Assembly (NCBI RefSeq): GCF_016026235.1
Contig: NZ_CP065613.1
Source of the DNA: Escherichia coli
GTDB taxonomy: Bacteria > Pseudomonadota > Gammaproteobacteria > Enterobacterales > Enterobacteriaceae
Direction: 5' to 3' (one strand)
DNA: 64,000 nt
Shown: positions 1-1,889 of the stretch, in pieces
How positions within the stretch are numbered: the first letter of the stretch is position 1
Layout of the letters: the number at the start of each line of letters is the position of its first letter
Made by a program: the position numbers and the translations under genes
The notes under the pieces: model-generated
Database searches by the model: none
What the model saw: only the letters and a program-made list of their open reading frames with translations
What the model was told of the DNA's origin: nothing

Positions 1-36
1 TAACAGTACAATCAGTATGATGGCAAGTCGCATCAT
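1..36 (-). CDS. Ibs-family type I toxin, N-terminal 12 codons only (MMRLAIILIVLL); the rest lies beyond the window start
   Basis: Reverse complement of 1..36 reads ATG ATG CGA CTT GCC ATC ATA CTG ATT GTA CTG TTA; paralogous to the complete copy at 369..428. Confidence 0.5.
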   Translation of the reverse strand, partial: MMRLAIILIVLL

Positions 37-82
37 AACCCTTCTCCTTCAAGCCCTCGCTTCGGTGAGGGCTTTACCGTTA
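1..82 (+). ncRNA. Sib-type antisense sRNA (antitoxin), copy A, partial; 3' end approximate
   Basis: Fully antisense to the partial ibs ORF; ends at the GC hairpin GCCCTCGCTTCGGTGAGGGC (53..72) followed by TTT; inferred from family architecture. Confidence 0.3.
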
Positions 83-265
83 CAGCCCCATGCTGCCCAG
101 TTATCGTAAGCTCTCTTTAAATAACCGCAACGCATTGATCTACCTTTAAATCTTTTCTTCGAGCGCGCTCGAAAAACCCCATGCAAAACAGAGATAATTT
201 TTGGGAAAAAGGATCTATTACGGCAGTAAACGTGGGCGATGAAGTGGCTATCAAAAAGTTCGGTT

Positions 266-292
266 CAGGGCGATGCACCCCGCATCGCCCTG
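266..292 (-). terminator. Hairpin with 11-bp stem (CAGGGCGATGC / GCATCGCCCTG), possible terminator of the copy-B ibs transcript
   Basis: Perfect inverted repeat with 5-nt loop; on the minus strand a T-run follows after ~8 nt. Confidence 0.35.
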
Positions 293-334
293 ATTGACAT
301 CGTTGATTCTTTGACCTAATTTAGTGAGTAAGGG

Positions 335-474
335 TAAGGGAGGATGACTCCTCCCCTGAGACTGACTGTTAATAAGCTCCGAAACTTATCAGTAACAGTA
401 CAATCAGTATGATGACAAGTCGCATCATAACCCTTCTCCTTTAAGCCCTCGCTTCGGTGAGGGCTTTACCGTTA
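335..474 (+). ncRNA. Sib-type antisense sRNA (antitoxin), copy B; ends approximate
   Basis: Completely overlaps the ibs ORF on the opposite strand; 3' GC hairpin at 445..464 followed by TTT; candidate -35 TTGACC at 311..316; boundaries inferred, not measured. Confidence 0.4.
369..428 (-). CDS. ibsC: IbsC-like type I toxin, 19-aa hydrophobic peptide MMRLVIILIVLLLISFGAY
   Basis: Manual translation of the minus strand; AAGGAG Shine-Dalgarno 7-8 nt upstream of ATG; near-identical to my recollection of K-12 IbsC; below the ORF-track size cutoff. Confidence 0.75.
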   Translation of the reverse strand: MMRLVIILIVLLLISFGAY

Positions 475-533
475 CAGCCCCATGCTGTCCCGCCATCGTA
501 AATCCCCATTAAATAAACACAACGCATTGATCT
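393..533. repeat. Sib/Ibs repeat unit copy B
   Basis: Direct repeat of 1..141. Confidence 0.8.
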
Positions 534-602
534 GAGTTTGATTTATTTTCTGGAGCAGACTCGCAAAGTAGAATGCGCAACGCGGCAACGGTGTGGAGAA
601 GG

Positions 603-644
603 GATAAAAAAACGGGCAAGTCAGTGACCTGCCCGTTAATTTTC
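603..644 (-). terminator. Intrinsic terminator downstream of serA (bidirectional shape)
   Basis: Hairpin AACGGGCAAGTCAGTGACCTGCCCGTT flanked by an A-run and a T-run, immediately 3' of the serA stop. Confidence 0.6.
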
Positions 645-656
645 AGAGAAGGGGAA

Positions 657-1889
657 TTAGTACAGCAGACGGGCGCGAATGGTACCCGGAATAGCTTTCA
701 TTGCCTGCAGCGCTTTTTCGGCAACGTCTTCGTCAGCTTCAATATCAATAACTACATAACCCATCTGGGCGGAAGTTTGTAGATATTGCGCGGCGATGTT
801 GACGCCCTGCTCGGCGAAGATTTTGTTCAGCGCAGTTAGCACGCCCGGACGGTTTTCGTGGATGTGCATCAGACGACGACCACCATGCAGTGGCAGCGAG
901 ACTTCCGGGAAGTTCACCGCAGAGAGCGTTGAGCCATTGTCAGAATACTTGATCAATTTACCCGCAACTTCCAGGCCGATATTCTCCTGCGCTTCCTGAG
1001 TCGAACCGCCAATGTGTGGCGTCAGAAGGACGTTGTCGAATTCACACAGTGGAGAGGTAAATGGATCGCTATTGGTCGCCGGTTCCGTCGGGAATACGTC
1101 GATTGCCGCCCCCGCCAGATGTTTGCTCGCCAGCGCATCACACAGCGCCGGAATATCCACCACAGTACCGCGCGAGGCATTAATCAGCAGCGAGCCGGGC
1201 TTCATTAGCGAAATCTCTTTCGCGCCCATCATATTTTTGGTGGACGGATTCTCTGGTACATGCAGACTCACCACATCGCTCATATTCAGCAGGTCAGAAA
1301 GATGCTGTACCTGAGTGGCGTTGCCCAGCGGCAGTTTGTTTTCAATATCATAAAAGTAAACATACATTCCCAGCGATTCAGCCAGAATGCCCAATTGAGT
1401 ACCAATATGACCGTAGCCGATGATACCCAGCTTTTTGCCGCGCGCTTCAAAAGAACCCGCCGCCAGTTTGTTCCACACGCCACGGTGCGCTTTAGCATTG
1501 GCTTCCGGCACGCCGCGCAATAGCAGCAGCAGTTCGCCAATCACCAGCTCCGCAACAGAGCGCGTATTTGAGAACGGTGCGTTAAATACCGGGATCCCGC
1601 GCTTTGCCGCCGCATCCAGATCAACCTGGTTTGTTCCGATACAGAAACAGCCAATAGCGACCAGTTTTTCTGCGGCGTTGATCACGTCTTCAGTCAGATG
1701 GGTACGGGATCGCAGGCCGATGAAGTGGGCATCGCGGATGGATTCTTTTAATTGTTCATCATCCAGCGCGCCTTTGTGAAATTCGATGTTGGTGTAACCA
1801 GCTGCACGAAGGCTTTCCAGCGCCTTTTGGTGCACGCCTTCTACCAGCAGAAACTTAATCTTGTCTTTCTCCAGCGATACCTTTGCCAT
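657..1889 (-). CDS. serA: D-3-phosphoglycerate dehydrogenase
   Basis: 410-aa ORF; recognised SerA sequence with NAD-binding GxGxxG (GIIGYGHIGTQ). Confidence 0.97.
   Translation of the reverse strand: MAKVSLEKDKIKFLLVEGVHQKALESLRAAGYTNIEFHKGALDDEQLKESIRDAHFIGLRSRTHLTEDVINAAEKLVAIGCFCIGTNQVDLDAAAKRGIPVFNAPFSNTRSVAELVIGELLLLLRGVPEANAKAHRGVWNKLAAGSFEARGKKLGIIGYGHIGTQLGILAESLGMYVYFYDIENKLPLGNATQVQHLSDLLNMSDVVSLHVPENPSTKNMMGAKEISLMKPGSLLINASRGTVVDIPALCDALASKHLAGAAIDVFPTEPATNSDPFTSPLCEFDNVLLTPHIGGSTQEAQENIGLEVAGKLIKYSDNGSTLSAVNFPEVSLPLHGGRRLMHIHENRPGVLTALNKIFAEQGVNIAAQYLQTSAQMGYVVIDIEADEDVAEKALQAMKAIPGTIRARLLY

Follow-up and report, generated by a model that had tools for sequence, protein, structure and literature searches.

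Two palindromic features stand near the start of this stretch of Escherichia coli DNA, and the best joint explanation that we can give for them is that the hairpin at 265-293 is the 3'-end stem-loop of an ibs toxin mRNA, whereas the palindrome at 158-173 belongs to a block lying upstream of an ibs promoter. We put the probability of this joint reading at about 0.6. Positions are those of the window, by which we mean the whole stretch of 64,000 nt that was analyzed. The structure of the hairpin, the conservation of its pairing on one strand in particular, and a transcript 3' end at its K-12 homologue indicate that it works as RNA on the ibs-sense strand. The result is an annotation refinement of a well-known locus and concerns ordinary, small-scale gene anatomy. 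It matters in that the Term-seq end and the strand-specifically conserved hairpin together give the ibsC mRNA a concrete, testable 3' boundary, and in that the hairpin would offer a reason why tandem toxin units 90 bp apart avoid transcribing into each other.

The window begins in the fau (ygfA)-serA intergenic region of E. coli, which here holds two tandem type I toxin-antitoxin units of SibC/IbsC type. Positions 1-700 are 100% identical to E. coli FDAARGOS_943, where the genes are annotated in the sequence zapA, ssrS, fau (ygfA), Ibs-family toxin, ibsC, serA. The original description of Sib-Ibs loci is that of Fozo et al. 2008. Between fau and serA, K-12 carries one sibC/ibsC unit, the strain of the window two; the window locus is the sibC locus duplicated in tandem, neither sibA/B nor sibD/E, and tandem ibs-sib units and their duplication have already been documented as a common feature (Fozo 2010, PMC2887945).

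Rfam SIB_RNA (RF00113) matches 294-444 with 134.2 bits (gathering score, 56) and 1-52 with 44.5 bits, the latter match covering model positions 97-147, with its 5' end cut by the start of the window. Membership in the Sib/Ibs family is indicated both by a covariance-model match above the gathering score and by a short hydrophobic Ibs ORF of about 19 aa that runs antisense inside the Sib RNA; on translation, neither of the two 19-aa toxin ORFs is interrupted. The first-pass annotation, which had recognized two Sib/Ibs toxin-antitoxin units in the sequence, is borne out by Rfam and by the existing gene annotation. The units resemble described Sib/Ibs loci (QUAD repeats; RF00113, PMC2943612, PMC2887945) in their full Rfam match, in their 19-aa Ibs ORFs antisense to Sib, and in the tandem arrangement within one intergenic region, and their promoters and terminators match those of K-12 sibC. 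They differ in that the palindrome and the hairpin both lie outside the region modeled by Rfam, which begins at 294, and outside what the accessible papers describe. The features of the locus are as follows, with the basis of each in parentheses.

1..52, plus strand: 3' part of the Sib antitoxin RNA of unit 1 (Rfam SIB_RNA; the full unit is seen in the identical strain locus).
1..36, minus strand: unit-1 ibs toxin ORF, 3' part; the complete ORF of the full locus encodes 19 aa, MMRLAIILIVLLLISFPAY (annotated Ibs family toxin spanning window -23..36; translation).
51..74, plus strand: Sib-1 terminator stem-loop, AAGCCCTCGCTTCGGTGAGGGCTT (sequence; repeated at 443-466; follows the end of the Rfam match).
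96..130, minus strand: predicted ibs-1 promoter, with start at about 96, -10 TACGAT (103-108) and -35 TTGCGG (125-130) (homology to the K-12 ibsC +1, carried over to the window copy).
155..176, no strand: inverted-repeat block, with core palindrome 158-173 and right arm 168-175, CTCGAAAA, which is the conserved motif (sequence, alignment).
177..264, no strand: true spacer between the units, with no homologue detected and its 5' half hypervariable between E. coli lineages (sequence comparison).
265..293, minus strand: hairpin with 12-bp stem and 5-nt loop, the proposed 3'-end stem-loop of ibs-2 (ibsC) mRNA, with a predicted RNA 3' end at about 260-261 (3' end of the K-12 homologue, 3056785(-)).
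294..322, plus strand: Sib-2 promoter, -35 TTGACA (294-299) and -10 TAATTT (317-322) (first positions of the Rfam model).
330..470, plus strand: Sib-2 (SibC-type) antitoxin RNA (Rfam SIB_RNA; K-12 sibC annotation).
369..428, minus strand: ibs-2 (ibsC) toxin ORF, MMRLVIILIVLLLISFGAY (annotation, translation).
488..522, minus strand: ibs-2 promoter, with start at 488, -10 TACGAT (495-500) and -35 TTGTGT (517-522) (homology to the K-12 ibsC +1 at 3057009).
547..568, no strand: unit-2 copy of the block, TTCTGGAGCAGACTCGCAAAG, non-palindromic, with the motif CTCGCAAA kept (alignment).
611..637, minus strand: serA intrinsic terminator, the sole terminator-like site called in 1-700 (terminator scan; its U-tract contains the K-12 Term-seq 3' end 3057129(-)).

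The ibs start sites at 488 (unit 2) and 96 (unit 1) were placed by homology to the ibsC +1 of K-12, which had been set by primer extension (primers ERI-T7-ibsC and MscIIC+1; Han 2010, PMC2943612). The SibC +1, AAGGGT, maps to window position 330 through the primers of the same study (Han 2010, PMC2943612).

A 392-bp direct repeat pairs 1-175 with 393-567. When units 1 and 2 are aligned with K-12 sibC, homology starts at the hairpin and stops at the palindrome block, which argues that the two palindromic features are the opposite ends of the repeated Sib/Ibs unit. Both had originally been assigned to a spacer between the units. That wording fits only 177-264, which is indeed non-homologous; the palindrome ends unit 1 and the hairpin opens unit 2. 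Neither the fau 3' end nor the other Sib loci are significantly similar to the spacer 177-264, and an Rfam scan at E <= 1 detected no known RNA family within it. A near-identical stretch (176-264, 89 nt) is found in 1858 of 5426 complete E. coli genomes, and the spacer diverges from that of O157 and LR14. Two other identities for this region were considered and set aside: a degenerate fau 3' end or a copy of another Sib spacer (174-266), with a similarity not above that of shuffles; and a small protein encoded by the 38-aa ORF at 181-297, which is unlikely since the ORF has no Shine-Dalgarno sequence and an indel and dense substitutions break its frame in O157.

The hairpin consists of a perfect 12-bp stem (arms 265-276 and 282-293) closed by a 5-nt loop, and it abuts the Sib -35 box (TTGACA, 294-299). 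Its stem is one pair longer than first noted; with that small extension, both palindromes are present as described. Chance expectations were estimated by shuffling the 64-kb window 100 times with dinucleotides preserved. For perfect stems of 11 bp or more closed by loops of 3-8 nt, the expected number is 0.13, versus two in the window (265-293 and 26173-26198), and the hairpin exceeds chance. The z-score of the fold in the hairpin region is -4.5 for plus and -3.2 for minus, the window copy itself reaching -25.9 kcal/mol on plus versus -24.1 kcal/mol on minus. The 45-mer 256-300 has identical copies in 1793 genomes; O157:H7 is among them, despite the strong divergence of its adjoining spacer. 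This 45-mer occurs at one or two places per E. coli genome, always at the fau-serA locus, with no further copy in the window. A dispersed repeat of the REP/BIME type was rejected for the hairpin and for the palindrome alike: such repeats have many copies, and each of these elements is confined to one locus.

Natural variation bears on the strand that is used. Eleven hairpin variants were compared, drawn from both unit positions in six E. coli lineages and from two Pseudocitrobacter. Scored over a 10-pair stem, 99.1% of the cells are paired in the ibs sense (minus strand) and 85.5% in the Sib sense (plus strand); in fifteen variant cells a G.U on one strand corresponds to an A.C on the other, and the minus-strand fold is the more stable in 10 of the 11 variants. 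One stem pair is swapped from U-A to A-U between Escherichia and Pseudocitrobacter. The covariation is drawn from two genera and closely related E. coli lineages. A contig scan with AAGGGTRAGGGAGGAT proved unspecific, yielding 120 stretches, mostly chance matches, with about eight useful enterobacterial loci.

The hairpin is confined to the sibC-type units of Escherichia and Pseudocitrobacter. It is absent from the Sib/Ibs units of Salmonella and C. amalonaticus and from the second Pseudocitrobacter unit, and is therefore not essential to the system. In six genera that have no Sib unit at the locus (Citrobacter, Enterobacter, Kluyvera, Yokenella, Trabulsiella, and Superficieibacter), the fau stop codon is followed by unrelated sequence, and because of this the hairpin is not to be counted as part of fau; on this comparative basis it belongs to the Sib unit. 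A comparison with the sibA/sibB and sibD/sibE spacers had been suggested as a check on both palindromes. The units at those loci carry other sequences at the position of the hairpin, the sequence of which is not conserved there; only the right arm of the palindrome is kept.

Could the hairpin instead serve the plus strand, terminating or insulating read-through from fau/ssrS or from Sib-1 and thereby shielding the Sib-2 promoter, perhaps acting in both directions? Its position would suit such a role, in that it abuts the Sib -35 box in every copy, with the Sib-2 promoter starting 1 nt downstream, and in K-12 it directly follows the fau stop codon, at a gene for which the Term-seq tables list no other 3' end (PMC7815308). 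The plus-strand fold of the window copy, at the -25.9 kcal/mol given above, is moreover followed by the moderately U-rich UUGACAUCGUUGAUUCUUUG; in this perfect copy it is as stable as the minus-strand fold, so that some plus-strand or bidirectional role is conceivable here. We nevertheless regard this role as unlikely. In none of the three K-12 conditions do the PMC7815308 tables give a plus-strand 3' end at the hairpin or beyond it, the plus-strand hairpin is not called by the terminator scan, the natural variants place A.C mismatches in the plus-strand stem, which accounts for its lower pairing, and in the genera that lack Sib at this locus fau is not followed by such a hairpin. As a main reading, a fau terminator was rejected on its absence from the Sib-less genera, the lack of a listed plus-strand 3' end, and the A.C mismatches in the plus stem.

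On the ibs-sense strand, K-12 Term-seq places a 3' end at 3056785, 4 nt past the homologous stem, in all three growth conditions (Adams 2021, PMC7815308), with 140250 reads in LB at OD 0.4 and 146380 in LB at OD 2.0, and a further listing for M63 (PMC7815308). The strings in Supplementary file 1 (PMC7815308) comprise 50 nt upstream, the end nucleotide, and 10 nt downstream, a layout that was checked against sgrS and the coordinates; by these strings the K-12 RNA ends ...AGGGCGAUGCGGGUGUAUCGCCCUUAC-C, and the sequence after the stem is UACC, which is non-U. In the published tables, 3056785(-) is labeled simply 'antisense to fau' (PMC7815308). Mapping of 3' ends, which the first-pass annotation had named as a check, is in this way answered for one strand of the hairpin homologue by the published K-12 data, the other strand having no listed end. 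The transcript-end data all come from K-12, whose copy is an imperfect hairpin adjoining fau. Read-through from serA was rejected as the origin of 3056785(-): the serA terminator end, 3057129, is listed for M63 alone (31838 reads) and is absent from LB.

Placed on the window, these data suggest an ibs-2 mRNA that would start at about 488, run antisense through Sib-2 and the Sib-2 promoter, and end a few nucleotides past the stem-loop, at about 260; the hairpin lies some 195-225 nt downstream of the ibs-2 start, past the Sib-2 promoter. No U-tract follows the hairpin on either strand (plus continues UUGACAUC, minus ACCGAACU), and because of this the likeliest course would be for transcription to stop nearby in a Rho-dependent or some other non-canonical way, and for 3'-to-5' exonucleases then to trim the RNA back until the stem halts them. 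On the same strand, 120 nt upstream, termination by Rho is reported for a region at 3056905(-) with a score of 4.4, a regional value taken over 800-nt windows (PMC7815308), and Rho-terminated RNAs are trimmed by 3'-to-5' exonucleases (noted in PMC7815308). We infer that the RNA ending at 3056785 originates at the ibsC promoter and acquires its end through Rho and trimming, and that the window copy behaves in the same way. The stem would then fix and stabilize the 3' end of the toxin mRNA, and in the tandem arrangement the hairpin would prevent ibs-2 transcription from running on into unit 1, its promoter and its body.

The hairpin is a stem-loop that is stable and lacks a U-tract, and its K-12 homologue has a 3' end a few nucleotides beyond it and a Rho region upstream; in these features it resembles the 3'-end stem-loops of Rho-terminated or processed RNAs (Dar and Sorek 2018, as cited in PMC7815308). 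Like theirs, the stem of the hairpin is stable and conserved as RNA, and its end would presumably be Rho dependent. The sibD/E spacer offers a different parallel, holding at the analogous position a copy of the yqiK intrinsic terminator, with a toxin-sense hairpin and a T-run about 20 nt upstream of the sibD promoter; the sibC-type hairpin, in contrast, lacks a T-run on both strands and does not resemble that copy in sequence.

Transcript lengths qualify this picture. The ibsC mRNA is about 160 nt on northern blots (Han 2010, PMC2943612), versus about 225 nt from the start site to 3056785, and for ibsD the sole toxin-sense 3' end listed is at the Sib +1 region, 3194855 (PMC7815308); because of these two observations, the hairpin-ended RNA may be a minor or separate species. 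The 3' ends of the ibs toxin mRNAs have been described as poorly defined (Han 2010, PMC2943612).

The palindromes had first been proposed as terminators or insulators separating the toxin transcripts. For the hairpin, this idea finds support in the minus-strand 3' end of K-12 and in the pairing of the toxin-sense strand, and fails as far as a canonical intrinsic terminator is meant, given the missing U-tract and the negative scan. The strictest version, in which both elements would be canonical Rho-independent terminators that end toxin or antitoxin transcripts, appeals to the fact that both are G+C-containing inverted repeats in an intergenic spacer. We consider it very improbable, for neither element has a T-run on either strand, and terminator prediction over 1-700, another of the checks suggested at the outset, calls the serA terminator alone and neither palindrome. 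An intrinsic terminator would have its 3' end in a U-tract, 7-9 nt past the stem, whereas the K-12 homologue of the hairpin ends after only 4 nt and in non-U sequence. The palindrome, for its part, is not placed at a transcript end: it is found upstream of the ibs-1 promoter, and about 85 nt separate it from the real Sib-1 terminator (51-74).

The palindrome itself, TTCGAGCGCGCTCGAA, is a perfect one of 16 bp (158-173) within a 22-bp inverted repeat (155-176) that pairs at 10 of 11 positions. It lies at about -62 to -77 with respect to the predicted ibs-1 start, the centre of the block being some 69.5 bp upstream. The same 100 shuffles of the 64-kb window predict 1.42 perfect palindromes of at least 16 bp, versus 1 observed; the palindrome is within chance expectation for 64 kb. 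Its region folds no better than shuffles (z = -0.6 and -0.2), and on both strands the sequence after it lacks a T-run (plus continues AAAAACCC, minus GAAAAGAU). The palindrome is not a terminator, and that part of the original proposal falls.

Its exact 40-nt context is present in 27 of 5426 E. coli genomes, at one place per genome and always at the fau-serA locus, with no second copy in the window. One mismatch separates 1466 genomes from this context (the single example inspected, TTCGAGCGTGCTCGAA, is changed at the centre), and 309 O157-like genomes carry TTCGAGCGCACTCGTA at the site. The palindrome is a form, perfected by one centre base, of an inverted repeat that is older and imperfect (CGAG-N-CTCG, flanked by T-rich and A-rich sequence). 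The perfect symmetry is probably incidental.

It is possible, though we lean against it, that the palindrome has no function of its own and that a chance or neutral change of the centre base arose in sequence conserved by recent common descent only. The rarity of the exact context, the 1-3 symmetry-breaking differences in other lineages, the shuffle-level fold, and an expectation of 1.4 such palindromes per window against the one seen are all compatible with this. It accords poorly with the right-arm motif, which is kept across paralogues and genera otherwise diverged in this flank, so that at least half of the element is probably constrained.

That motif, CTCG(C/A/T)AAA or CACGCAAA, stands at the expected offset in 13 of the 14 full-length units scanned, Pluralibacter having the variant CTCGACAA. 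Its carriers include all five K-12 units, E. albertii, Kluyvera, Salmonella, and C. amalonaticus, and Pseudocitrobacter has TTCGCAAAG there. The distance from the motif to the Sib terminator is 98-100 nt in E. coli sibC-type, sibD/E-type, and Salmonella units, and that to the ibs -35 box is 37 nt in units of the sibC type and in those of Salmonella. Of the two arms, only the right one, CTCG(C/A)AAA, is kept in nearly every Sib unit examined; the strength of the inverted repeat at the site ranges from 10 pairs down to none (null, 4.55 +/- 1.0). Inverted repeats round the same centre are found in E. albertii (CGAGTC-GACTCG, the arms adjoining), Kluyvera (CTTTGCGAG-ccta-CTCGTAAAG), and Pluralibacter (CGAGC-ag-GCTCG), while K-12 sibC, sibA, and sibD/E and Salmonella are at the null level, and the spacing of the arms varies from 0 to 6 bp. 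Two conserved half-sites at a fixed spacing, as expected of a palindromic operator, are not found.

Most likely the block is a putative upstream element of the ibs promoter region. It resembles operators and UP-type promoter elements in its position, at about -55 to -80, and in the conserved motif at a fixed distance from the -35 box; it differs from them in that neither the symmetry of its half-sites nor their spacing is conserved, and it was not matched to any named operator. A second ibs promoter, with TTGCGA of the block as its -35 box, was rejected when the sequences were read by eye, there being no consistent -10 across units.

A protein-binding role, which had also been raised for the palindrome, is conceivable. 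The specific proposal that a dimeric DNA-binding regulator uses the palindrome and its relatives as an operator, controlling ibs toxin transcription from about -70, we find doubtful. It would explain the position of the block centre, -69.5 from the predicted ibs-1 start, the right arm, which stands out as conserved in nearly every Sib unit and lies 37 bp from the -35 box, and the above-null inverted repeats on the same centre in several genera. Yet the left arm is not conserved in K-12 sibC, sibA, and sibD/E, in Salmonella, or in C. amalonaticus, a set that includes experimentally studied, functional units; the variable spacing of the arms is ill suited to a fixed dimer site; the perfect palindrome is a rare allele; and a literature search on binding returned only a sigma-S ChIP peak, assigned to the sibC promoter. 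A more particular conjecture, that the block is a candidate site for a regulator that times Ibs toxin transcription and that the perfect 16-bp palindrome is a high-affinity allele of it, seems to us distinctly improbable. As an upstream element, the conserved motif would be a small lead on what controls ibs transcription. In Salmonella, ibsA mRNA increases when Mg2+ is low.

Two minor observations concern the block. The recurring CGAG...CTCG symmetry in E. albertii, Kluyvera, and Pluralibacter, with a change from C-G to T-A at the inner pair, hints at selected symmetry. In sibB, a weak plus-strand Term-seq end (2153897) directly follows the motif (PMC7815308), which makes a reading of the block as an RNA hairpin a minor possibility.

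The interval between fau (ygfA) and serA, in which the window opens, carries two tandem SibC/IbsC-type units, type I toxin-antitoxin units of a Sib RNA and an Ibs toxin, in this strain (window 1-660, together with 1377-2160 of L001, the same locus in the identical strain E. coli FDAARGOS_943, which reaches left of the window start), and one in K-12. The spacer that is diagnostic of the two-unit state is found in 1,858 of 5,426 complete E. coli genomes. When this spacer was compared with the sequences of O157:H7 and LR14, about one-third of the positions in its 5' half (window 177-232) were found to differ, along with an indel, and the 3' half and the flanking units differed by 3% or less. Possible causes of the 5'-half divergence are an old polymorphism or imported DNA.

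Two diverged unit types follow fau in tandem in Pseudocitrobacter (L053 2640-3283), one of them E. coli-like and bearing the hairpin (window 265-293 in this strain), the other Salmonella-like and hairpin-free. The latter is the sole type in Salmonella and C. amalonaticus (L130 and L132 2097-2479, respectively), and only the hairpin-bearing type has been kept in E. coli. The presence of both types in Pseudocitrobacter, and of single types in these other lineages, suggests an old two-unit locus that underwent differential loss. In this strain, the hairpin copy next to fau, which lies immediately to the left of the window (L001 1378-1400), has a C-to-G change, GCGCT for GCCCT, which removes one pair on both strands and reduces the fold to about -10 kcal/mol. 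Apart from the hairpin at 265-293, the window contains only one perfect hairpin whose stem reaches 11 bp or more; it is located at 26173-26198 and has a 4-nt loop.

In K-12, Term-seq at OD 2.0 in LB places a minus-strand 3' end at 3056960 (Adams 2021, PMC7815308). This end lies directly past the sequence antisense to the Sib terminator hairpin (equivalent to window 443-466) and 11 nt ahead of the ibsC start codon; the first position of the Term-seq string printed for it is the ibsC +1. Because of the position of this end, the Sib terminator seems to be active in both directions, yielding an aborted ibsC leader of approximately 50 nt. At the K-12 sibD/sibE locus (L004 1050-1080 and 1415-1445), the yqiK intrinsic terminator, ATCCCTGGCCCAAAAAGCCGGGGATTTTTT, was duplicated along with the Sib unit, and a second copy therefore lies in the sibE-sibD spacer, immediately upstream of the sibD promoter and in the toxin-sense orientation.

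A promoter-like match on the plus strand (window 169-198, TCGAAA-18-GATAAT, 9/12) overlaps the right arm of the 16-bp palindrome at 158-173; such matches are no more numerous in window 1-700 than shuffle expectation allows. A very strong region of Rho termination (score 42) has been reported antisense to serA at K-12 3057682(+) (Adams 2021, PMC7815308), corresponding approximately to window 1160, which implies that, in K-12, substantial plus-strand transcription reads through from the sibC side and runs antisense to serA.
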